Origin: a virus | Virus record (IMG/VR): IMGVR_UViG_3300010430_000018 | Location: 18,421 to 82,420 of that record | Reading direction: 5' to 3' (one strand) | DNA: 64,000 nucleotides | In this document: in pieces, positions 10,718 through 56,647 of the stretch | Numbering within the stretch: the first letter of the stretch is position 1 | How the letters are laid out: each line of letters begins with the position of its first letter | Made by a program: the position numbers and the translations under genes | Notes under the pieces: model-generated | Database searches by the model: none | What the model was told of the DNA's origin: nothing | The model's input: the letters and a program-made list of their open reading frames with translations, nothing else

Positions 10718-11989
10718 ATGAAAAAATATTTAAGTCTGTTGGTTTTTATTGTGGTTCTTTGTTTACCTAATACTTCTCACTCACAAGAAGTAAAACAAAA
10801 AGGTAAATTCTTTAAAGCATTGTACGAAGACTTTTTACAGTATGGAACTATATATGCAGCAGGAGATGCACGCAATTCTTACCAGACAAGCAGACAAGAC
10901 TTTTTTGTAGAACGACCAGCGGATGGTGATCTTTATGCTATTCCTCGTGTAATAGATGTAACAGAATACTTTGAATTTGATTATAGAATAGGATTTGGAA
11001 TAAGGAAACTAGCTAGATTTAACTATGAAAGAAAGCCAAGAAATTGGTATGACGGAACTGAACAACAATTAGCATTCACAGCCCCGTCTTCAGCTCTAAC
11101 AGGATTAGAATATCAGTTGCATTTTGAAAAAGAAAGATTACGTGGTGAAGAATTTAATAACCATAGAATATTTATTAAACATACTGGAAAATATCATATA
11201 ATTAAAGCTGAATCAAGAGAAGTAGGAAGCATTAACTTAAACTATAGGTCAGCAGAAGCCAGGTTACGTTTACCTATTGGTAAAAAGTTTAGCATATCAG
11301 CTGGAGCAATCTACCGTACACATGAGCGTGCTTATGGGTACAATCCAATTGAGATATGGCTTAATGAAACCGAACTGTTCTTTGACCCAGATGGTAATCC
11401 TTTTTTAGATGAGAATGGTAATCCTATTGAGTTTCCAGCTAACCCATGGTATTCTTTAGGTTATGAATATGGATACACAGATGTTTATTTTACTGAAACT
11501 AGTATTGATCCTAATACAGGGGAAGAAATAGAAAGATCTGATTGGTATTGGGTAGATTCTGATGGAAATAGAGTTGCTGATTCAGATTTAGAATTTAGAA
11601 ATACTGTTTTTAGAGATTTAATAAATACATATAATAATGAACAATGGGATCTTTTAAGTGGATTTGGTGAGATAGCACCTGTAGTAGGATTTGATTTCTA
11701 TCATTATAAAAGTAAGTTTTGGTTGCATGCTTATGCAAACTATATATTACCACATCATAAATACATCTCTGGAGATGAGGACTTTAGTTATCTAAATAGA
11801 AACAATTGGGGTAAAGGTGGACTAAGAATAGATTCTGAACATGAGCAATGGGATGACTACAATGTAGGAGTTAACTTAGGATGGAAATTGAGTAGACATT
11901 TTGGTGTCTTTGTAGAAGGAGAGTATGGCAAATTTTGGGATAGTGAATTATACCAAACTAGCATTGGATTAAATTTTTCATTTAAATAA
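10718..11989 (+). CDS. Putative outer-membrane beta-barrel protein
   Basis: Sec signal peptide, amphipathic aromatic-rich strands, and C-terminal ...SIGLNFSFK resembling a beta-signal. Confidence 0.65.
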   Translation: MKKYLSLLVFIVVLCLPNTSHSQEVKQKGKFFKALYEDFLQYGTIYAAGDARNSYQTSRQDFFVERPADGDLYAIPRVIDVTEYFEFDYRIGFGIRKLARFNYERKPRNWYDGTEQQLAFTAPSSALTGLEYQLHFEKERLRGEEFNNHRIFIKHTGKYHIIKAESREVGSINLNYRSAEARLRLPIGKKFSISAGAIYRTHERAYGYNPIEIWLNETELFFDPDGNPFLDENGNPIEFPANPWYSLGYEYGYTDVYFTETSIDPNTGEEIERSDWYWVDSDGNRVADSDLEFRNTVFRDLINTYNNEQWDLLSGFGEIAPVVGFDFYHYKSKFWLHAYANYILPHHKYISGDEDFSYLNRNNWGKGGLRIDSEHEQWDDYNVGVNLGWKLSRHFGVFVEGEYGKFWDSELYQTSIGLNFSFK

Positions 11990-16198: not shown

Positions 16199-16456
16199 AT
16201 GATAAAAAAATTTTTAAAAAAACTAATACATATTATTTGGACATTTAGTTTACAAGATTATTGGAAAGCTATTTGGTCAAAGACGTCTGTTGATGAAAAA
16301 GCAATAGCTACTGTTAAAGAGGTTAAAAAAAGATTTAAGTTAACAGCTGATGAGCTAGCTGATGTTGGTAGAGCAATAAAGGAAGTTGGTAATCAACTTG
16401 GAGATATTGATGATGCTGTTAAAGGCAAAGCAAGAAAGGGCAGAAAGAAAAAATAA
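16199..16456 (+). CDS. Hypothetical helical protein with basic tail
   Basis: ORF-track 16130..16456; the likely start is MIKKF at 16199. Confidence 0.6.
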   Translation: MIKKFLKKLIHIIWTFSLQDYWKAIWSKTSVDEKAIATVKEVKKRFKLTADELADVGRAIKEVGNQLGDIDDAVKGKARKGRKKK

Positions 16457-16581
16457 TGGCTAGAATTATAACAGGTGTATATAAAAAAGTGTCTGGTAAA
16501 AAAAGACCAGGTATACATAGTAAAAATGCATCTAAAGGTCAAAATGGTTATAAACAAAAATACAGAGGTCAAGGAAGATGA
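16456..16581 (+). CDS. Small basic protein ending YRGQGR (41 aa, not in ORF track)
   Basis: MARIITGVYKKVSGKKRPGIHSKNASKGQNGYKQKYRGQGR; TAATG coupling to the upstream gene. Confidence 0.65.
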   Translation: MARIITGVYKKVSGKKRPGIHSKNASKGQNGYKQKYRGQGR

Positions 16582-18407: not shown

Positions 18408-18683
18408 ATGGGAACAAAAAAAGGAATGAAACGCAAAACAGCTAGGAGAGCTTATATGCCAAAAGCTGAGATGGGTGGCGGTGGATTCACTTATGGTGCA
18501 GGAGACGGTGATATATCTCCAAGAGAAGCAAACATGAACCAGATGGCTGCAGGTGGTGGTCTTAAAGGCTTTAAAAGCGGTGGTAGTGTTATGGATGGAA
18601 TGGAAAAACCTAGTTATAAAAAAGGTGGCACTAAGAAAGGTATGAAAAGAAAAACTGCACGTAGAGCTTACATGAAAAAATAA
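18408..18683 (+). CDS. Small basic protein with identical terminal repeats
   Basis: GTKKGMKRKTARRAYM at both ends; four xxGG motifs. Confidence 0.7.
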   Translation: MGTKKGMKRKTARRAYMPKAEMGGGGFTYGAGDGDISPREANMNQMAAGGGLKGFKSGGSVMDGMEKPSYKKGGTKKGMKRKTARRAYMKK

Positions 18684-18688
18684 AAGTT

Positions 18689-18964
18689 ATGCCAGCAAAA
18701 AAAATTAAACCTGCTAAAAAAATAGGAACTATGCCTAAAAGTGTAGTATCTTATAAAAAAGGAGGGTCTAAAAAATCTGGTAAAAACTGGATCAAAGGTG
18801 CAATTAAAAAGCCGGGTGCTTTAAAAGCTACTGCAAAAAGAGCAGGTGCTATGAAAGCTGATGGAACTATTAAAAAATCTTGGCTCAGAGAAAAAGCAAA
18901 AGGTAGTGGTAAGACTGCACAGCGTGCTAGACTTGCTTTAACATTAGGTAAAATGAAAAAATAA
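18689..18964 (+). CDS. Small Lys-rich protein
   Basis: WIKGAIKKPGAL...ARLALTL; highly basic. Confidence 0.7.
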   Translation: MPAKKIKPAKKIGTMPKSVVSYKKGGSKKSGKNWIKGAIKKPGALKATAKRAGAMKADGTIKKSWLREKAKGSGKTAQRARLALTLGKMKK

Positions 18965-19054: not shown

Positions 19055-19300
19055 ATGGGAGCATCAAAGAAAAAAATATCTTTTCCTATGAAGGATCAAA
19101 GATATGTTAGAGAAACAACTAATAGTTATTATAATCCAACTTCTGTAACTCAAGCTATTCAACAAAAAAAGAATAGAAAGGCAGTAGAAGCAAAGATTAA
19201 AATGGCTAAAAAAACAAATTTAAATCCACCACAAAAGTCTACTAGAGCTAAAGAACCTGTTCAGTCAGCTGCTTTTAAGAATGGATATAGAAATAGTTAA
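19055..19300 (+). CDS. Small basic protein
   Basis: 81-aa K/R-rich ORF within the operon. Confidence 0.6.
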   Translation: MGASKKKISFPMKDQRYVRETTNSYYNPTSVTQAIQQKKNRKAVEAKIKMAKKTNLNPPQKSTRAKEPVQSAAFKNGYRNS

Positions 19301-23042: not shown

Positions 23043-23063
23043 AGGGCACTGTAATGGTGCCCT
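23043..23063 (-). terminator. Terminator at the convergence of the + and - blocks
   Basis: AGGGCAC-7 nt-GTGCCCT followed by a T-tract on the minus strand. Confidence 0.7.
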
Positions 23064-23202
23064 ATAACTTAGCAAATAAAGAAATAAATTCATAGACTTG
23101 ATAGCTCATTAAACGTTCATTTGTTTTATCATCATACCAAGTATTATTTTTTTTTGTAACGGAATTACCTGTTACGTGACTTCTATATATTTTATTTCTC
23201 AT
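23062..23202 (-). CDS. Hypothetical protein (46 aa)
   Basis: MRNKIYRSHVTGNSVTKKNNTWYDD...; its start overlaps the end of the upstream gene. Confidence 0.45.
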   Translation of the reverse strand: MRNKIYRSHVTGNSVTKKNNTWYDDKTNERLMSYQVYEFISLFAKL

Positions 23203-23476
23203 TTTCTAGTTCTTTTTCTAAGCATGCGAGTGCACGCCATGCTACTTTAGCCGTATGACGAATTCCGTCATCATCTATAGTGCCAGCATCAATTAAATGT
23301 CTAGCGAGTGCATCATAATCATCTTTTGATTTATTACGATCCCAATGTAATGGTTTATCAGGATGATGCTGTTTGTTTCCTTGTAAAGAAACTCTTGCTA
23401 TTTCCATAATTGCTTTAGGAAAATACTTTATAACACCAGTAAAGACCGGTCTTTCTTTTCTATCTTTTGCGTTCAT
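23192..23476 (-). CDS. dATP/dGTP diphosphohydrolase-like (DUF5664-type) protein
   Basis: P.AI.EIARVS..G..., DALARHL, D.DG..H.AKVAWRALA; likely start MNAKDRK. Confidence 0.7.
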   Translation of the reverse strand: MNAKDRKERPVFTGVIKYFPKAIMEIARVSLQGNKQHHPDKPLHWDRNKSKDDYDALARHLIDAGTIDDDGIRHTAKVAWRALACLEKELENEK

Positions 23477-23644
23477 TATTAATTCTTTTTTAAAGGGAGA
23501 AATTAAAGGAGAAGGGGAATAAGAATGCAAAAACTTATCCCCCTGTTGGTTTACATCTCCCGGACTAAAACTTGTCCATGTTGTTATTATGAGTTATGTA
23601 AAAACAAAATATAATTCCAAAAATGATAAGGAACCAAATCATAG

Positions 23645-24544
23645 TTACCTTCCCATAAATATATCTTGAACTAGTCTTTTTTCTGTTACATCCTCATCTA
23701 TTTCTATAGCCCAGTCTGTATCAGTATTATCAATATCTAATTCACTATTATCATTATTTAGTTCATATGCTTTTAAATTATTAGGATTCAATACCCTATT
23801 ATTTAAACATTCAGCTGTCATAAAATCATGAAAGTTCTGTTGGTCATTTAACCAATCCCGTGGGTGAGCTTTCTTTAATGAGTGTGTAACATGATTATAA
23901 AAGGCCCAAGCGCTTGCATTAATTTCTGTTTCACCATAATCAAATGATGGTTTATCCATCTCTTTTTTAAGACATGTCATTTGCTGTGTATCAAGCATAT
24001 CCTCCTCAATAAAAAGTCTTCCTGCAAGTTCTGACTGTTGCTGACAATTTAATTTTATTGACTTAAACATATCTTTGTCTGTTATTAACCTCTTGTAATA
24101 CTTCTCACCATTTTTAATTTGGCTAGCAATTTGGTTTCTAACGTCCATATCTGCTGATCCAGTATGTTTTCTTTTAAAATTATACATATCTCCAGCTACC
24201 ATCCCATTAGAACAAACTTTTACATAAGCTCCAATAGAACATTGAAATCTTGTACTTTTATCATATGAATTAGTCCAAGTAAACATCATACCTAATTCTG
24301 ATTCACTATTTACAGCGTCATCAGTTGAGTTAGGTATTATATAATATATGCCACGGGCAACGTTAGCATTCATATTACATGTATATAATTGTTCTGTAAC
24401 AGTAAATCCACTATTCTCAAGTAGATTTAAAGTGTTGTCTATCACTGTTTTATGTGATATTACTGTATAGCTCTTACCATGATTAGGTAAGGGCGCATTT
24501 TCTAGATAAGATCTAGTTGTATCAATTGGTTTTTTATATCCCAT
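23645..24544 (-). CDS. DUF932/DUF945-like protein
   Basis: Y..ISH, NSYDKS, VCSNGM, KHT and W.FYN.VT motifs. Confidence 0.75.
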   Translation of the reverse strand: MGYKKPIDTTRSYLENAPLPNHGKSYTVISHKTVIDNTLNLLENSGFTVTEQLYTCNMNANVARGIYYIIPNSTDDAVNSESELGMMFTWTNSYDKSTRFQCSIGAYVKVCSNGMVAGDMYNFKRKHTGSADMDVRNQIASQIKNGEKYYKRLITDKDMFKSIKLNCQQQSELAGRLFIEEDMLDTQQMTCLKKEMDKPSFDYGETEINASAWAFYNHVTHSLKKAHPRDWLNDQQNFHDFMTAECLNNRVLNPNNLKAYELNNDNSELDIDNTDTDWAIEIDEDVTEKRLVQDIFMGR

Positions 24545-24595: not shown

Positions 24596-24931
24596 TTAAT
24601 ATCCTTTTTCTTTTAGAAATTTTTTGACACAGTCTGGACAAGGTTTGACATTTTTCTTTACCCATATTAGATAGTTCAAGGGTATATTCTTAGGTTTTTT
24701 ACCCTTGTACTTGCCAAAACTTAATGTAGGCCTTCTATCAGGCTTTATCATTCTTGTATTTCCATCTTGATTCCAAGACATTCTAAATGTAAATTGTTTA
24801 TTATTGTGTGTGACTGTAGTTTTATCTTTTATAGATTTATTAACTTTAGTAATTGGTATTTTAAAGTATTCTGAGGCCAGTTTTTTAGATTCAAACTGTT
24901 GTCTACTCTTCCATTCTATTATAGATATCAT
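24596..24931 (-). CDS. NUMOD1-like HTH plus DUF3820-like FGKYKG domain
   Basis: FES.KLASEYF and LSFGKYKG...IP.NYL.W; start probably MISII. Confidence 0.55.
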   Translation of the reverse strand: MISIIEWKSRQQFESKKLASEYFKIPITKVNKSIKDKTTVTHNNKQFTFRMSWNQDGNTRMIKPDRRPTLSFGKYKGKKPKNIPLNYLIWVKKNVKPCPDCVKKFLKEKGY

Positions 24932-25211
24932 ATAATTGGTATTTAGTAAAGAGTTCATCTCCTTTTTCAATAAATTTTAATGTAGTAAGACGTATAACAT
25001 TTCCTACAACTATTAACTGTACATTAGGTTTATTATTATGATTTATAAATCCACCTAATGGAGTTCTAATATAATTATTCTCAAAATTTTCATCATAGAC
25101 ATGTGTTATCCCAAGCTCAATACCTTTAACAATATCTTGTTTAGCAAACAACCCCAAGCCATGAATAGGAGAGTCTTTTATAGTTAGACTCTCCGGTAAT
25201 GGTTTATACAT
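24903..25211 (-). CDS. Minimal SET-domain lysine methyltransferase
   Basis: S.IHGLGLFA...I.KG, FINH...PN and I..GDEL...Y. Confidence 0.88.
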   Translation of the reverse strand: MYKPLPESLTIKDSPIHGLGLFAKQDIVKGIELGITHVYDENFENNYIRTPLGGFINHNNKPNVQLIVVGNVIRLTTLKFIEKGDELFTKYQLYDIYNRMEE

Positions 25212-25212
25212 A

Positions 25213-27204
25213 TTAAAATAATTTTAACTGATTATTGTTGACGGTGATAATACTATTTATCTCAGACTCTATAGCTTGCATATAATAAGACTTATTAATT
25301 TTATAGTTTTCCCATTTAGGTTCTACCTCCATCTTATTAAATATAGTTTGTAACCACTGGCCTGATTCTAATTGTATTTCTCTACCATCATTTTTATTTA
25401 CTTTAATTACTTTTTTACCTGCAGTAGATATAAAATATCTATTTATCTTTTGTAATTCATCTTCTACAAAAGAACCATCTTTTAAATATCTTGCTACTTG
25501 TTTCCAATCTCCTTTTGATTTTCCACCAATACAGTAATCTAAGATGTTTTTATTTTTATCTAAATAATCTTCTGGTAATACATCATGTACAAAGTAATAG
25601 TAAATTGCTTTAGGTATAACTAACTTTGATTTATTCTTGTGTAATTGTAAATTATAAAAATCAAAACGTCCCTTTAGCTTTACAGGAGCAAAACTAAATT
25701 TGTCTTTGTCTACCTTATATAAATAATGTGGTTGACTTTGTTTTAGCTCTCTCCATTTAGTAATATCTACCTCTACAAAATTGTTTACACCAATGTAATT
25801 ATTTACATCAGCAAGTACAAGTTTTTGATATTCATCATGTTCAAGATTGAGATTCGTCTTATCCTCCCATTCTTTACATATTTCCATATATAAATCAATG
25901 TGCTCTCTAGGTATTATTGTTTCAACACCATCTGTATTTTGTAATAAAGCAACAGCACCTGGAATTCTTTCCATTATCTGTTCATATAACATCATAAGAG
26001 TCAACTGACCATTAATAGTTATACGTAAACAAAGCTCAGGATCATAGAAAAAGCTATTAATATCATTGCTAAGACCAAAAGTAGAGTTAAGTATAATCTT
26101 ATATACATAATTCATTGGATTGCTCTTAGGGATCTTCTTACGCTCTTCAAAGAACCATTCATACTGATTACAAAATTCTTCTTTGGGAAAGTGGCCAGGT
26201 GACCATTTATTTTTAATAGCTAGATTAGGATAAAAACTAGTAACATCAGATGATAGTATCACAAGATCTTCAGAGCTTTCATATATACCTTTCTTTGCTG
26301 CACCGTGTGCACCACCTAAACCAAAATGTGTTTTAACACCTTTATAATCTATTTTATATTTAAAACTACCTTTAAGATTGCTAGCATTAACTTCTAATGC
26401 ATTAAATCTAGCATGTAGAGACTTAAATTCATCTGACGTAAACGATACACAAGGTAAAATTATATCTGATACTTTTATTGTATCTCTATGTGTTCTCATT
26501 TTCCTTAAATCTCTTTTAGGAATATTAAGATTTTGAGATAGATAGTAACCAAATATTTCTTTACTAATTCTTGGCTCAGAGGCACTAAACATATTTATAT
26601 TATATGTCATTGTAAGCTCTTTTCTAAGCCCTATTTGTGATTTAGATCTATTATATATCTCTTTAGTTGATCTAACATCATTGATACAGTACTCAAGAAT
26701 AGTATTAATCTGTTCTTGTGTAGTTATCTCTGTCTCATGATGAATAGGCATATCAAGAATGTTTTCCCAATCCATACTATACTGTATCCATTTAAGACTA
26801 GAGCGTTTAGCCGGGTTGTCCCAATGATGCAATTTAAAAACATCTATTTGACCAATCTTCATTTTCCATTGTGGATAATCACTAAATTCTTTTTTATTAG
26901 ATTTTTGAATACAAAGTTGAGCATATCTATAAATAACATTAGCAACCTCACAACCACTGAGATCTGACCAATCTTGATGATTATCTATTATATAGTGAGT
27001 GACTTGACCATCAAAGGCCAATCCGTTATAGGATATATGCCACTCTTTGTTATTAATATTATCTTCTAAAAAAGATATGAAATCATTTATATCATTACGC
27101 AGGTCATGTATAACAAAGACTTTAGTTTCCGTAGTCTTATAATGTTCAAATACCCCTGTAAAACAATTCTTTAATGTTTCATAATCCATTACCCAATGTC
27201 TCAT
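25213..27204 (-). CDS. Family B DNA polymerase with 3'-5' exonuclease
   Basis: DYET, YN...FD, YC.NDV, DVTSFYP, KIILNS.FG and NTDG. Confidence 0.92.
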   Translation of the reverse strand: MRHWVMDYETLKNCFTGVFEHYKTTETKVFVIHDLRNDINDFISFLEDNINNKEWHISYNGLAFDGQVTHYIIDNHQDWSDLSGCEVANVIYRYAQLCIQKSNKKEFSDYPQWKMKIGQIDVFKLHHWDNPAKRSSLKWIQYSMDWENILDMPIHHETEITTQEQINTILEYCINDVRSTKEIYNRSKSQIGLRKELTMTYNINMFSASEPRISKEIFGYYLSQNLNIPKRDLRKMRTHRDTIKVSDIILPCVSFTSDEFKSLHARFNALEVNASNLKGSFKYKIDYKGVKTHFGLGGAHGAAKKGIYESSEDLVILSSDVTSFYPNLAIKNKWSPGHFPKEEFCNQYEWFFEERKKIPKSNPMNYVYKIILNSTFGLSNDINSFFYDPELCLRITINGQLTLMMLYEQIMERIPGAVALLQNTDGVETIIPREHIDLYMEICKEWEDKTNLNLEHDEYQKLVLADVNNYIGVNNFVEVDITKWRELKQSQPHYLYKVDKDKFSFAPVKLKGRFDFYNLQLHKNKSKLVIPKAIYYYFVHDVLPEDYLDKNKNILDYCIGGKSKGDWKQVARYLKDGSFVEDELQKINRYFISTAGKKVIKVNKNDGREIQLESGQWLQTIFNKMEVEPKWENYKINKSYYMQAIESEINSIITVNNNQLKLF

Positions 27205-50449: not shown

Positions 50450-50758
50450 ATGGCAGAATCTAATGAGTCAGATGATATAATGGGTAAAATACAACAGCAG
50501 CAGTTGGATGATATATTACTAGACCAAGCGTATAATAATTCGTGGCTTATACTTTCGGGGCAAATCACTTTTGATGAATTGATACAACATGAGTTTAATA
50601 GTGGTAAAGAATTTATAATGTCTTATGATCCGGACAACGGACCCAAAGAGGAAGAATTAGAAAATATGATAGCGTACTATATAGATACTGAGGACTATGA
50701 GAAATGTGCAAAGCTTCAAAGTATATTAGATAATGCTTATCCAAAAACAACAGCATAA
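50450..50758 (+). CDS. UVR (UvrB/UvrC) motif protein
   Basis: C-terminal EDYEKCAKLQ. Confidence 0.65.
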   Translation: MAESNESDDIMGKIQQQQLDDILLDQAYNNSWLILSGQITFDELIQHEFNSGKEFIMSYDPDNGPKEEELENMIAYYIDTEDYEKCAKLQSILDNAYPKTTA

Positions 50759-50961
50759 TGGCACTAAAGAAATCAAGTAAAAAGAAAAGTACAGTTAATA
50801 GTAGTGGCAATTACACTAAACCTACAATGCGTAAAAGATTGTTTAATTCAATTAAAGCAGGAAGTAAGGGTGGACGTGCTGGTCAATGGTCTGCTCGTAA
50901 AGCTCAAATGCTCGCAAAACGTTATAAAGCAAACGGAGGAGGATATAAAACAAAGAAATAA
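50758..50961 (+). CDS. Small basic protein (DUF5872-like)
   Basis: NYTKP.MRKR...GGRAGQWSARKAQ...YK..GGGY. Confidence 0.7.
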   Translation: MALKKSSKKKSTVNSSGNYTKPTMRKRLFNSIKAGSKGGRAGQWSARKAQMLAKRYKANGGGYKTKK

Positions 50962-51080
50962 TGGATGCAAAAAAATTAAAAGAAATATCAAGCCAATTAA
51001 AAAAGGCATCTGCTATGCATAAAGGGCAAGCAGCTAAAATTGACAGATTAATTAAGTCAATGTCAAAAAAGAAAAAATGA
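50961..51080 (+). CDS. Small basic protein (39 aa)
   Basis: MDAKKLKEISSQLKKASAMHKGQAAKIDRLIKSMSKKKK; translationally coupled. Confidence 0.55.
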   Translation: MDAKKLKEISSQLKKASAMHKGQAAKIDRLIKSMSKKKK

Positions 51081-51196: not shown

Positions 51197-51374
51197 AAAA
51201 ATTATTTCAATAATGTTATGTTGTATGTTATTATTTACTTGTGGTTCATCCAAACCTTCACTAGAAAAAGATGAACAAAAAAAAGAAGTGGTATATGATA
51301 ATGATGATCCATTAATGAATTTACTTTTATCAGCTTTAGTTATTTATTCAATAAAAATATTATTTGCAAGATAA
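51189..51374 (+). CDS. Small lipoprotein with C-terminal TM
   Basis: LFT-C-GSS lipobox and a hydrophobic C-terminus. Confidence 0.55.
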   Translation: MNKKIISIMLCCMLLFTCGSSKPSLEKDEQKKEVVYDNDDPLMNLLLSALVIYSIKILFAR

Positions 51375-51616
51375 TGGCAAAAACTAAACAACAAAAAAGT
51401 CTTACTAGATGGACTAAGCAGAAGTGGAGAACACCAAGTGGAAAGAAAAGTTCTGTAACTGGTGAAGTGTATGCACCATCTAAAACTATTTCAAAGTTAA
51501 AGAGTACAAAAAAAGGAAAAGCTAAATTAGCTGCAGCAAATAAAAAGAAACGTGCTGCCACTAAAAAAGGCAAACAACATGCTAAACACGGATTGCATAA
51601 AGGTAAAAAAAGATAG
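51374..51616 (+). CDS. Small basic protein
   Basis: Q.SL..WTKQKWRT.SGK.S..TGE.Y.P. Confidence 0.7.
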   Translation: MAKTKQQKSLTRWTKQKWRTPSGKKSSVTGEVYAPSKTISKLKSTKKGKAKLAAANKKKRAATKKGKQHAKHGLHKGKKR

Positions 51617-51962: not shown

Positions 51963-52253
51963 ATGGCAAAGAAAAAAGATAGTAGATTAACAAGAGCAGG
52001 TGTGTCAGGTTATAATAAACCTAAACGCACACCATCACATCCAAAAAAGTCACATGTAGTTGTGGCTAAAGTAGGAGATAAAGTTAAAACAATACGTTTT
52101 GGAGAGCAAGGTGCTAGTACAGCAGGCAAACCTAAAGCAGGTGAATCAGCTAGAATGAAAGCAAAACGTAAATCTTTTAAAGCAAGACATGGTAAAAATA
52201 TTAAAAAAGGTAAAATGTCTGCTGCATATTGGGCTGATAAAGTAAAATGGTAG
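51963..52253 (+). CDS. Small basic protein (DUF6321-like)
   Basis: KTIRFG.QG...RKSFKARH...SAAYWA...W; start MAKKK. Confidence 0.7.
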   Translation: MAKKKDSRLTRAGVSGYNKPKRTPSHPKKSHVVVAKVGDKVKTIRFGEQGASTAGKPKAGESARMKAKRKSFKARHGKNIKKGKMSAAYWADKVKW

Positions 52254-53918: not shown

Positions 53919-54290
53919 ATGGCATTAGTTAATAAAGTTGATTTAAAAATGAAAGTTGATATGGATATAAGTATTCAATATCAAATTATGACATATTGTT
54001 TTTTTAATAATATACTTATTAGTAATTCAGATCTAAAATTTTTAGCAGAACTATCAAAAAATAAAGATATAGAGTTAACTAAATTTTGTTTGAAACTTGT
54101 ACAAGATGGTGTTTTTAAAAGTCCTCAATCTGCTAGAAATGCAATTACAAAAGCTGAAAGAAAAAGTTTATTAATTAAAAAAGGTAATAATAAAAAAACA
54201 ATAGCTCTTCAAAAGAATATTAGTGTTCAAACAGAAGGGTTGGTTTTGCTTGATTATAAAATATTAGGTAGTGAATCCAAAGAGCCATAA
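53919..54290 (+). CDS. Putative HTH DNA-binding protein
   Basis: S.QSARNAI.K.....L; adjacent to the IHF-like gene. Confidence 0.5.
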   Translation: MALVNKVDLKMKVDMDISIQYQIMTYCFFNNILISNSDLKFLAELSKNKDIELTKFCLKLVQDGVFKSPQSARNAITKAERKSLLIKKGNNKKTIALQKNISVQTEGLVLLDYKILGSESKEP

Positions 54291-54627
54291 AGATATTAAA
54301 AAAGGTATTGCAGATGAAGTTGGTGTACATAATACAGTTGTAGATGAATTTATAACTTTTTATTATGCTAAGCTTAGAAAGAAATTATCTAATTTAAATT
54401 ACCCAAGAATACAAGTAGATGGTTTAGGAACTTTTTATTTAAGAAAAAACAAACTTGAAAAAGCAATTAAAAAGAATAAAAGTATTTTAGGTAATTTAGC
54501 TAAAAGAACTTATGTAGGATTTGCAAAAAGTGAAGAAATTAATAAAAATGTTGAACAAATGGAATCAGCACTACAACAAATGGAAAAAGATATATTAAAT
54601 AAAAAGAAATTTAAGAATGAAAAGTAA
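54271..54627 (+). CDS. IHF/HU-like DNA-binding protein
   Basis: IA.EVGV....V..FI...RIQVDGLGTFY. Confidence 0.75.
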   Translation: MNPKSHKDIKKGIADEVGVHNTVVDEFITFYYAKLRKKLSNLNYPRIQVDGLGTFYLRKNKLEKAIKKNKSILGNLAKRTYVGFAKSEEINKNVEQMESALQQMEKDILNKKKFKNEK

Positions 54628-56371: not shown

Positions 56372-56647
56372 ATGGCAGAAAAAATTATTCCAGTAGGACA
56401 AAAATTATTAATCAAAGAAATAAAGGCAGAAACTAAAACTGCATCAGGACTTATTATTCCAGAAATAGCACAAAAAATAACTTATAGAGGTAGAGTTGTT
56501 GGAATAGGTGATTCTGTAAAAGAAATAAAAATTGGAGATGTGGTGCAATATGCTGAACATGCTATGCCAACTCCAATGAAACATGATGGGCAAGAACACC
56601 TATTATTGCAAGTAGGGGACGTATATGCCATCATAAGAGATGAGTAG
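56372..56647 (+). CDS. groES: Co-chaperonin GroES-like
   Basis: P.G.K.LI, mobile loop KTASGLIIP, G.VV.IG and IKIGD.V.Y. Confidence 0.9.
   Translation: MAEKIIPVGQKLLIKEIKAETKTASGLIIPEIAQKITYRGRVVGIGDSVKEIKIGDVVQYAEHAMPTPMKHDGQEHLLLQVGDVYAIIRDE

Follow-up and report, generated by a model that had tools for sequence, protein, structure and literature searches.

A stand-alone SET gene beside a DNA polymerase gene in a marine crAss-like phage

The DNA analyzed here is a stretch of 64,000 nucleotides (the window, to which all coordinates refer) from a marine crAss-like phage. Seawater and viral metagenomes from 14 studies contain near-identical copies of the SET locus; no RNA dataset was listed among those with such copies, and no near-identical DNA was found in cultured phages. 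On the − strand, positions 24903–25211 hold an ATG-initiated gene for a stand-alone minimal SET-domain protein of 102 aa (PF00856, phrog_28741), a predicted SAM-dependent protein-lysine methyltransferase. Directly upstream lies a DNA polymerase gene (25213–27204, − strand; phrog_1252, E = 5e-128), whose stop codon is a single base away from the start of SET. By tblastn, the polymerase shares 32–35% identity with those of Cellulophaga phage phi14:2, a Nitrincola phage, and Vibrio phages. The original prediction had placed SET directly downstream of a PolB gene; the one-base gap bears out the adjacency, while the assignment to family B (or to family A) found no match in Pfam (E≤0.1), NCBIfam, or the PDB sequences (E≤1e-3).

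Downstream of SET, a 124-aa ORF (24596–24970, − strand) overlaps the 3′ end of the SET gene by 68 nt, if the listed TTG is its start. It matches PF12843 (22.4 bits, cut-off 22), carries a C-terminal motif reminiscent of the C-terminal region of certain Pol III epsilon/ExoX proteins, and has a match to NCBIfam PRK06310 (E = 1.4e-6) that lies far under the cut-off of that model; the ORF was detected nowhere but in L002 and L003, the closest two SET-bearing relatives. Beyond it are a DUF932 gene (23645–24544, − strand; PF06067, 65.3 bits), a conserved gene bordering the variable slot that SET occupies, and a gene for a dATP/dGTP diphosphohydrolase N-terminal-domain protein (23192–23530, − strand; PF18909, 43.5 bits; phrog_27780, E = 9e-31), the last gene of this leftward block. 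A terminator-like hairpin at 23043–23063 (− strand; 7-bp stem with 5 GC pairs, then a T run) closes the block, and no earlier − strand terminator-like site was found from the polymerase gene through SET to the genes that follow it. A promoter scan returned 29 matches against a shuffle mean of 35.2, and was thus not above shuffles.

The genome also encodes small basic proteins in two clusters, as had been predicted: ten ORFs at 16.1–19.3 kb and 50.7–52.3 kb have K+R contents of 17–35%, compared with a background of 11.7% in 38 long ORFs, and net charges of +6 to +27 (nine with 22–35% and +10 to +27; one with 17% and +6). Both clusters are on the + strand, among holin/tail genes and endolysin/terminase/portal genes. 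Four of the mini-proteins fall in conserved phage families (phrog_20603, phrog_17747, phrog_14910, and phrog_7595). Those of the first cluster include B1 (16456–16581, + strand; 41 aa, K+R 29%, net +12; weak phrog_17967 match, E = 0.006), B2 (18408–18683, + strand; 91 aa, K+R 25%, net +17; G003 homologue, E = 6e-15), B3 (18689–18964, + strand; 91 aa; phrog_20603, E = 1.3e-8), and B4 (19055–19300, + strand; 81 aa, K+R 23%, net +15). B2 has a basic motif of about 16 residues, containing KTARRAY, that is repeated at both ends, and returned no tblastn match in cultured phages. The B3 module recurs within a 1012-aa frame at another site of the genome. The second cluster includes B5 (50758–50961, + strand; 67 aa; phrog_17747, E = 3.5e-35), B6 (50961–51080, + strand; 39 aa, K+R 33%, net +10; no significant family match), B7 (51374–51616, + strand; 80 aa; phrog_14910, E = 4.6e-15; weak DUF5872 match), which carries the N-terminal string that had been likened to the H3 tail, and B8 (51963–52253, + strand; 96 aa from an internal ATG; phrog_7595, E = 2.6e-43).

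An IHF/HU-like gene, also predicted, survives as a weak candidate, a 118-aa ORF at 54271–54627 (+ strand) that matches a PDB HU chain (5eka, E = 0.031), six IHF chains (E = 0.35–0.67), and NCBIfam IHF-alpha (E = 0.0054; 16.8 bits, cut-off 111). PF00216 and PF18291 searched across the genome gave no match, and Pfam and PHROG scans, each of ten small ORFs with seven in common, detected no HU/IHF.

The 102-residue protein retains the motifs of a SET domain

On eukaryotic chromatin, lysine methylation is written mainly by SET enzymes. The 102-aa ORF is a genuine minimal SET domain with intact catalytic motifs, in agreement with the original prediction. PF00856 scores 35.3 bits (cut-off 22.4) over a stretch that comprises residues 48–92 only, and this ORF is its single match in the whole genome; phrog_28741 covers residues 1–96 (E = 4e-25). 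No Pfam domain besides SET was found in the protein, which stands alone at no more than ∼120 aa with neither a pre-SET nor a post-SET region. Searches recovered 1584 relatives with lengths of 56–179 aa, and those compared with the 102-aa protein are 96–101 aa long.

Residue conservation was counted over the window SET and 118 of 124 loci, those with fewer than 85 residues in the matched SET stretch being dropped. The GxG motif, which binds SAM in SET domains, is G18-L-G20 (G18 kept in 110/119 sequences, G20 in 118/119) and aligns to the GxG of KMT2 SET domains when the family profile is compared with PDB chains. The NH(S/N)xxPN motif, which functions in SAM binding and in the pseudoknot, extends from F55-I-N57-H58 to P62-N63 (N57 119/119, H58 114/119, N63 117/119). 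In the ELxxxY motif, E86 is kept in 119/119 sequences and Y91 in 118/119; Y91 aligns to the last Tyr of the KMT2 ELxYDY string, which we take to be the catalytic Tyr of SET domains. G20 and the positions of the NH and ELxxxY motifs are each kept in 114–119 of the 119 sequences. Based on these alignments, the protein is predicted to adopt the SET beta-fold and is apparently a catalytically competent methyltransferase.

A profile built from 53 relatives matched KMT2 (MLL) SET domains best among solved structures (e.g., PDB 4z4p, 5f6k, and 5f5e; E = 4.5e-8 to 1e-6), with an alignment that covers the N-terminal GxG strand, the NH motif, and the ELxxxY motif. Compared with KMT2 in the 5f6k alignment, the phage protein lacks about 30 SET-I residues and the post-SET part; unlike the multi-domain KMT2 proteins, it also lacks partner-binding regions. 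The same profile reaches vSET (A612L) of chlorovirus PBCV-1 (PDB 1n3j/3kma), its positions 8–91 aligning to residues 5–105 of the 119-residue chain (1n3j, E = 1.8e-6). Both proteins are virus-encoded and stand-alone, have no pre-SET or post-SET region, and share the GxG, NH, and ELxxxY motifs. A protein atlas search gave look-alikes at the family level only.

The phage protein differs from vSET in several respects. At 102 aa it is shorter than the vSET chain, and vSET is itself called the smallest histone methyltransferase in the part of a review used here (PMC7019647). Its family has invariant motifs of its own, an N-terminal Y-x-P-x-P and RTPLGGF. Its bacterial host lacks histones, H3 included, and its gene lies in the replication module and not among virion genes, whereas vSET, according to the same part of that review, is packaged in the virion and trimethylates H3K27.

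SET is an accessory cassette shared by unrelated phages and marine bacteria

Five close relatives whose polymerases are 78–84% identical to that of the window phage are without SET (0/5; positive control, 5/5), and two of them are complete genomes. In one complete SET-less genome (G016) the slot holds a MazG gene and an SPL-family gene, with the DUF932 gene kept beside them. The region that separates the polymerase gene from the DUF932 gene is thus a variable slot, and SET an accessory cassette within it.

Cultured phages that carry SET (eight records by tblastn) include Pelagibacter, Prochlorococcus, and Stenotrophomonas phages. Pelagibacter phage Kolga and Prochlorococcus phages P-SSM7 and P-RSM6 encode the same SET family at 42–50% identity, in genes that are unannotated, and ORF62 of Stenotrophomonas phage Ps15 is a distant member (28% identity) that the portion of the Ps15 paper used here lists as bacteria-like, with no assigned function. 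Like the window SET, these four proteins are stand-alone and about 100 aa long, but their genes differ from it in setting: the P-SSM7 gene follows nrdA and nrdB near a primase gene, that of P-RSM6 adjoins baseplate genes, and that of Ps15 lies among small early ORFs. The main texts of the literature searched yielded no study of phage SET activity or of a SET–metK linkage.

The family is also found at 62 loci in bacterial genome assemblies. Some assembly bins may include phage contigs, so that only syntenic SET loci on long contigs are safely chromosomal. At all 15 Marinimicrobia-type loci, on contigs of up to 643 kb, metK homology starts at the SET stop codon or overlaps it, and ahcY comes next; in Porticoccaceae, the order fabA-fabB-SET recurs in eight or nine loci. 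A quick, unrooted tree with few columns, which left out 6 of 124 loci (L015, L016, L058, L128, L136, and L137; SET match ≤80 query residues), groups the crAss-type SET clade with cellular clades, the joining node having 91% SH-aLRT, below the 95% star threshold. The family includes resident chromosomal genes of several marine bacterial lineages as well as genes of several unrelated phage lineages.

All five of the longer SET forms that were fetched carry a basic, Tyr/Trp-rich N-terminal extension of ∼80–90 aa, and tblastn against the stored loci located this extension module in L022. Pfam assigned no family to the extension or to the 253-aa L022 protein. Our impression is that the C-terminal part of the latter may resemble a class I methyltransferase and that the N-terminal part of two further proteins (P0123/P0124) may be NTase-like. 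A tandem SET-SET protein (P0121) was considered as a hint of dimerization and given no weight, as the catalytic Tyr is missing from the first of the two SET copies and the contigs measure ∼1 kb.

A conserved host protein is the most likely substrate

We propose that SET is a vSET-like lysine methyltransferase, carried as an accessory cassette, that most likely acts on a conserved bacterial host protein, a reading that we consider somewhat better than an even bet. A host protein is favored as substrate because close homologues of SET are chromosomal in marine bacteria and because unrelated phages of different hosts carry it; the bacterial homologues in particular make a host target likelier than a phage target. 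The argument for the host target is one from distribution, and not from a substrate that was seen. In the proposed mechanism, SET would be co-transcribed with the replication genes, immediately behind that of the DNA polymerase, a setting in keeping with the polymerase genes found on the SET strand at other loci (given below), and its expression would presumably share their timing. The conserved host protein, rather than the phage mini-proteins, would then be methylated during infection, and SET would be a core part neither of the virion nor of any DNA-packaging system.

SET may instead act at the replication fork, modifying a replication or nucleoid protein of the phage or its host, such as the polymerase, SSB, or an HU/IHF-like protein. 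A target at the fork would explain the repeated linkage of SET to polymerase genes: of 62 SET loci, 32 have a polymerase gene on the SET strand, 10 being crAss-type and 22 family A (PF00476, 225 bits); three arrangements and two unrelated polymerase types are represented, and at 19 of the 62 loci the polymerase gene is within 2.1 kb of SET. The primase and ribonucleotide reductase genes that adjoin SET in P-SSM7, the Pol III epsilon-like C-terminal motif of the downstream 124-aa ORF, and the weak HU/IHF-like gene point in the same direction. However, the linkage may reflect only a shared early or middle timing, and the settings of SET in P-RSM6 and Ps15 do not fit a replication role. The close relatives manage without SET despite their very similar polymerases, and the bacterial SET genes adjoin metK-ahcY or follow fabA-fabB, not replication genes. 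We therefore judge a target at the fork to be unlikely.

We give still less credence to a broader role, in which SET would be the prokaryotic-virus counterpart of vSET, a writer on DNA-bound basic proteins in general that silences the host nucleoid or marks phage DNA. Its targets would be host HU-type proteins, the phage HU/IHF-like protein, or the Lys-rich mini-proteins, whichever were at hand, and the basic Tyr/Trp-rich extension of some relatives would serve as a nucleic-acid tether. This extension would fit action on nucleic-acid-bound and possibly basic proteins, which comes close to the idea of the original prediction.

A dedicated pairing of SET with the basic mini-proteins is not supported

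The original prediction was that SET methylates the phage's own K/R-rich mini-proteins, which would condense or coat the phage DNA in a methylatable, chromatin-like system. The mini-proteins are real, very basic, and Lys-rich, and every near-complete SET-bearing crAss-type genome examined encodes some Lys-rich mini-proteins, including G003 and G006. Some SET relatives have the basic N-terminal extension. A precedent exists in Chlamydia, where cpnSET acts on a basic protein of the bacterium itself, methylating the H1-like Hc1, as described in the part of PMC10117894 used here. It is the nearest one for a SET/basic-protein pair, but no basic-protein partner co-occurs with the phage SET. Compared by description only, Chlamydia cpnSET/NUE and Methanosarcina Go1-SET are likewise encoded by prokaryotes, although as secreted effectors or cellular enzymes and not as phage genes.

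Co-occurrence of SET with these families across phages, whose absence had been named beforehand as grounds for rejecting the chromatin idea, is absent. In HMM searches that detected all positive controls in the window phage's own genome, none of the 16 SET-bearing records contained phrog_17747, phrog_14910, or phrog_20603, and one (Kolga) contained phrog_7595. Cultured-phage records with phrog_7595, phrog_17747, and phrog_14910 number 50, 17, and 13, respectively, and none of these is among the eight records with SET by tblastn. Conversely, all five SET-less close relatives hold a B2 homologue, and the SET-less complete genome G016 retains, besides B2, the whole second basic cluster (phrog_17747, phrog_14910, and phrog_7595). 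The B5 and B7 families are present in SET-less G013 as well as in G016, the B8 family in G016, and B4 homologues occupy the same position in SET-less G014 and G016. SET itself lies in the replication block on the strand opposite both clusters, and its bacterial homologues exist without phage mini-proteins.

We also considered whether the terminal KTAR[KR]AY repeats of B2 track SET, in a survey that left out L144. The motif at first fitted, being present in G000 and G003 and absent from the B2 homologues of SET-less G014 and G016, but the correlation is broken by SET-less G017, which has it, and by SET-bearing G001, G004, and G006, which do not.

The H3-like strings of the mini-proteins are present, but at chance level. 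With K and R treated as equal, the longest ungapped match to the ten-residue H3 string is 5 residues, which was reached in 371 of 5000 composition-preserving shuffles (7.4%); A[KR][KR][ST] occurs once against 0.91 expected, and the window phage has arginine where the ARK-like string has its lysine. The caution, voiced with the prediction, that the likeness to H3 may be purely compositional is thus upheld. The evidence excludes a dedicated pairing of SET with particular mini-protein families, and we consider it very unlikely that the mini-proteins are the substrate.

It is just as improbable that SET is a non-catalytic SAM- or peptide-binding module or methylates a non-protein substrate: the short chain (102 aa against 119 residues of vSET), the almost complete loss of the SET-I insert and the missing post-SET region in the alignments, and the lack of a study of phage SET activity in the literature searched would allow this, but near-invariant SAM-binding and catalytic positions over 119 sequences are unexpected for a dead domain, the stringing of Marinimicrobia SET with SAM synthetase and SAH hydrolase genes fits a consumer of SAM, and the characterized SET enzymes named in the parts of PMC7019647 and PMC10117894 used here are all protein methyltransferases.

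Implications

The main result is a negative one, in that a phage chromatin system pairing SET with the mini-proteins is unsupported. At about 100 aa, the family is smaller than vSET and could serve structural and engineering studies as a conveniently small SET. Naming the substrate of SET, which we suggest is probably a conserved host protein, would show whether phages take over their hosts by protein methylation.

A Minimal SET Protein in the Replication Block

The SET gene (24903-25211, minus strand) starts with ATG and encodes a 102-aa protein that scores 35.3 bits against the Pfam SET family (PF00856, cut-off 22.4) and matches phrog_28741, a phage family without annotation, over residues 1-96 (E = 4e-25). 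From 1587 candidates in a large protein collection, we retained 1584 relatives (E ≤ 0.001) with lengths of 56-179 aa. An alignment of 53 relatives contains 18 invariant columns, which include the GxG glycines, N57, E86, and Y91, as well as the family-specific Y2, P4, P6, and an RTPLGGF block. When the window sequence was compared with 118 relatives from phage and bacterial loci, N57 and E86 were kept in 119/119 sequences, G20 and Y91 in 118/119, and H58 in 114/119. With PF00856 above its cut-off and the catalytic positions kept in 114-119 of 119 sequences, the original prediction of a minimal 102-aa SET with intact motifs is borne out. The near-invariance of these positions fits the picture of an enzyme under purifying selection, and the phage SET is probably active.

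Among solved SET chains, 63 distinct ones matched the profile of the 53-relative alignment at E ≤ 0.01, led by KMT2D, KMT2C, and KMT2A (4.5e-8 to 4e-7). The minimal SET protein of chlorovirus PBCV-1, vSET (PDB code 1n3j, 119 residues), was matched at 1.8e-6 over profile positions 8-91. In the alignment with KMT2C, the stretch leading from the N-terminal strand to the NH motif is ∼30 residues shorter in the phage protein, and the SET-I insert is therefore nearly gone. Judged from its sequence, the protein is a minimal, stand-alone SET resembling vSET, and a marine crAss-like phage encodes it in its replication module.

The SET start codon lies one base past the stop of a 663-aa gene (25213-27204) that PHROG identifies as a DNA polymerase (phrog_1252, E = 5e-128). 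The polymerase proposed to lie directly upstream thus adjoins SET, but its designation as PolB is tentative, as no Pfam, NCBIfam, or PDB match decides between families A and B. It is 32-35% identical to the polymerases of Cellulophaga phage phi14:2, a Nitrincola phage, and many Vibrio phages. Scanning the window, we found no minus-strand terminator-like site between the polymerase gene, SET, and the three genes downstream; the first such site past this block is at 23063-23043 (minus strand). SET is followed by a 124-aa ORF (24596-24970, minus strand), which overlaps the SET 3′ end if the listed TTG is its start. This ORF matches PF12843 at its cut-off and NCBIfam PRK06310 at E = 1.4e-6, carries a C-terminal motif resembling some Pol III epsilon/ExoX proteins, and was seen only alongside SET, in the two closest relatives. 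The replication block ends 1.4 kb downstream of SET with a gene (23192-23530, minus strand) for a protein with a dATP/dGTP diphosphohydrolase N-terminal domain (PF18909, 43.5 bits).

The source IMG/VR record is 82,420 bp long and an estimated 72% complete, with the window covering bases 18421-82420. GC content is ∼30%, and PHROG names in the genome include large terminase, portal, holin, endolysin, ribonucleotide reductase, and helicase. The 23-28 kb stretch recurs in near-identical form in 20 runs from 14 studies, which are exclusively seawater, marine, or viral metagenomes.

Basic Mini-Proteins and Their Likeness to Histone H3

Ten small plus-strand ORFs lie at 16.1-19.3 kb and 50.7-52.3 kb of the window. 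Nine have a K+R content of 22-35% and a net charge of +10 to +27 (the remaining one, 17% and +6), compared with 11.7% K+R and 13.6% D+E in a background of 38 long ORFs, so the claim of many basic mini-proteins was correct. Four represent conserved phage families: phrog_17747 (B5, E = 3.5e-35), phrog_14910 (B7, 4.6e-15), phrog_7595 (B8, 2.6e-43), and phrog_20603 (B3, 18689-18964, plus strand, 1.3e-8). The first cluster adjoins holin and tail protein genes, and the second precedes endolysin, a GroES-like gene, terminase, and portal. The GroES/Cpn10-like gene (56372-56647, plus strand; PF00166, 54.6 bits) is immediately ahead of the large terminase gene. The phrog_20603 module of B3 also occurs inside a 1012-aa open frame upstream of the window in the same genome (G000:C1:969-1097); hence at least one of the mini-proteins doubles as part of a large protein, probably one of the virion.

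The proposed resemblance of these proteins to the H3 tail does not rise above composition. Their longest ungapped match to the quoted H3 string, with K and R treated as equal, is 5 residues, and 371 of 5000 shuffles contained a match at least as long; an ARKS-like pattern was seen once, versus 0.91 expected. The caveat that the likeness might be purely compositional agrees with the shuffle result.

The mini-protein B2 (18408-18683, plus strand) carries the same basic motif, containing KTARRAY, at either end. The motif spans ∼16 residues (GTKKGM.RKTAR.AYM; also in loci L068:15620-15904, minus strand, and L148) and is retained in a phage whose polymerase is only ∼30% identical. It is shared by the B2 homologue of the SET-bearing genome G003 (E = 6e-15) and absent from those of the SET-less G014 and G016; SET-less relatives retain the central Gly-rich core. 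This apparent correlation with SET is broken by the 99%-complete, SET-less G017, which has several motif copies, and by the SET-bearing G001, G004, and G006, whose B2 homologues lack the motif. Window B2 has arginine where an ARK string would have the target lysine.

SET and the Mini-Proteins Do Not Co-Occur

The SET family is present in 8 of 50,697 cultured-phage records, representing five phages: Pelagibacter phage Kolga, Prochlorococcus phages P-SSM7 and P-RSM6, marine virus AG-345-P14, and a distant member, Stenotrophomonas phage Ps15. Three mini-protein families, phrog_7595, phrog_17747, and phrog_14910, occur in 50, 17, and 13 records of this set, respectively (HMO-2011, CRP roseophages, pelagiphage podoviruses, S-CBS2, and others); by tblastn, these records do not overlap with the SET records. 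We also searched 16 SET-bearing records with HMMs, namely the five SET phages and 11 IMG/VR contigs of 21-114 kb, including the near-complete G003 (100%) and G006 (98%). Family phrog_7595 was found in 1/16 (Kolga), and phrog_17747, phrog_14910, and phrog_20603 in 0/16; as a positive control, the same searches gave matches in the window's own genome.

Five IMG/VR contigs reached through B2 encode polymerases 78-84% identical to that of the window, and SET was found in 0/5 of them, including 0/2 complete genomes (positive control, 5/5). In one, the 100%-complete G016, phrog_17747, phrog_14910, and phrog_7595 are adjacent at 20.0-21.6 kb, so the mini-proteins persist in genomes without SET. In place of the SET gene and 124-aa ORF of the window, G016 carries, between its polymerase gene and DUF932 (23645-24544, minus strand, in the window), genes for MazG (34.3 bits) and an SPL-family protein (64.2 bits). 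Because close relatives lack SET and G016 holds these other genes there, SET is an accessory cassette of a variable slot. The slot in G016 (L146:365-1493, minus strand), with its MazG and spore-photoproduct-lyase-family genes, marks a hot spot for such cassettes.

The co-occurrence expected of a joint chromatin and methylation system was thus not found. Both features, the SET gene and the group of basic mini-proteins, are real but independent of each other, and the phage chromatin reading survives only as a broad-specificity variant of low probability.

Hints of Nucleic-Acid-Bound Substrates

Longer SET relatives number 33, with 29 listed at 181-198 aa. All five examined among these 29 (P0127, P0132, P0137, P0140, and P0144) have a basic, Tyr/Trp-rich module ahead of SET that extends the N-terminus by 77-92 aa; its K+R content is 26-30%, and it contains 11-16 Tyr+Trp residues. 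The same module heads a different, 253-aa protein immediately after SET at L022:576-1337 (plus strand); Pfam has no family for either the extension or this protein. It may be a shared targeting module and could tether the enzyme to nucleic acid, which, if so, would suit nucleoid-type substrates of host or phage. One 199-aa relative (P0121) is a tandem SET-SET whose first copy lacks the catalytic tyrosine; it comes from contigs of ∼1 kb and might point to a function as a dimer or be a product of misassembly.

The SET-bearing G003 and G006 encode Lys-rich mini-proteins from other families. One such family, DUF6321 (47 bits), occurs in 306 cultured-phage records, mostly cyanomyoviruses, and is therefore far more widespread than SET. 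Its 98-aa basic protein (L068:15926-16222, minus strand, in G003; 11194-11490 in G006) is up to 93% identical between a crAss-like marine phage and Pelagibacter podophage HTVC027P, and its conservation across unrelated phages and hosts is unusually high. The HU/IHF-like gene of the window (54271-54627) gave weak matches.

SET Genes in Other Phages and in Bacterial Chromosomes

We compared 62 phage SET loci, 57 from IMG/VR and 5 from phage records. SET shares its strand with a polymerase gene in 32/62, many of the remaining loci being too short to tell; these polymerases divide into 10 crAss-type and 22 family A members (PF00476, 225 bits, for the latter). The polymerase is within 2.1 kb of SET in 19 loci. 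Among the phage records, SET is preceded by nrdA and nrdB (P-SSM7), adjoins baseplate genes (P-RSM6), or sits amid small early ORFs (Ps15). The polymerase linkage across loci, together with the window block uninterrupted by a terminator-like site, indicates that SET travels with replication modules, self-contained, in several unrelated phage backgrounds.

A motif scan of one genome per prokaryotic species also yielded 62 loci. One common chromosomal neighbourhood accounts for 15 of them, most labelled Marinimicrobia and on contigs of up to 643 kb, in which genes for SAM synthetase (three MetK Pfam domains) and then SAH hydrolase (441 bits) come after SET, in its orientation. In 15/15 (within L077-L107, e.g., L093:5001-7914), the region homologous to metK begins at the SET stop or overlaps it, and SET-metK-ahcY resembles SET plus a SAM-cycle gene string. 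In Porticoccaceae, eight or nine loci (among L110, L117, L122-L129, and L137) have the order fabA-fabB-SET, with peroxiredoxin, SSB, and MFS transporter genes on the opposite strand past SET; here the mini-SET is a resident chromosomal gene. Saccharibacteria and Flavobacteriaceae carry SET on long contigs. In a quick, unrooted tree built from few columns, the crAss-type SETs group in a single clade (98), which clusters with all cellular clades at 91% SH-aLRT, short of the 95% threshold for a well-supported node. A separate cluster (90) unites the SETs linked to family A polymerases, with cyanophage SETs outside.

A chlorovirus review describes vSET as the smallest histone methyltransferase, a packaged enzyme that trimethylates H3K27 and has been implicated in shutting off the host (PMC7019647). 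A review of bacterial methyltransferases reports that cpnSET methylates H3 and the chlamydial H1-like protein Hc1, and that Go1-SET methylates H4 in vitro (PMC10117894). The Ps15 genome paper gives the SET-domain ORF of that phage as bacteria-like and of unknown function (PMC9025141), and our literature searches found no study on the substrate of any phage SET. The SET family has a bacterial existence of its own and is tied to the SAM cycle in one lineage; on these grounds, the most economical guess at its target in phages is a conserved bacterial protein. Hence, the phage SET is probably aimed at such a protein.
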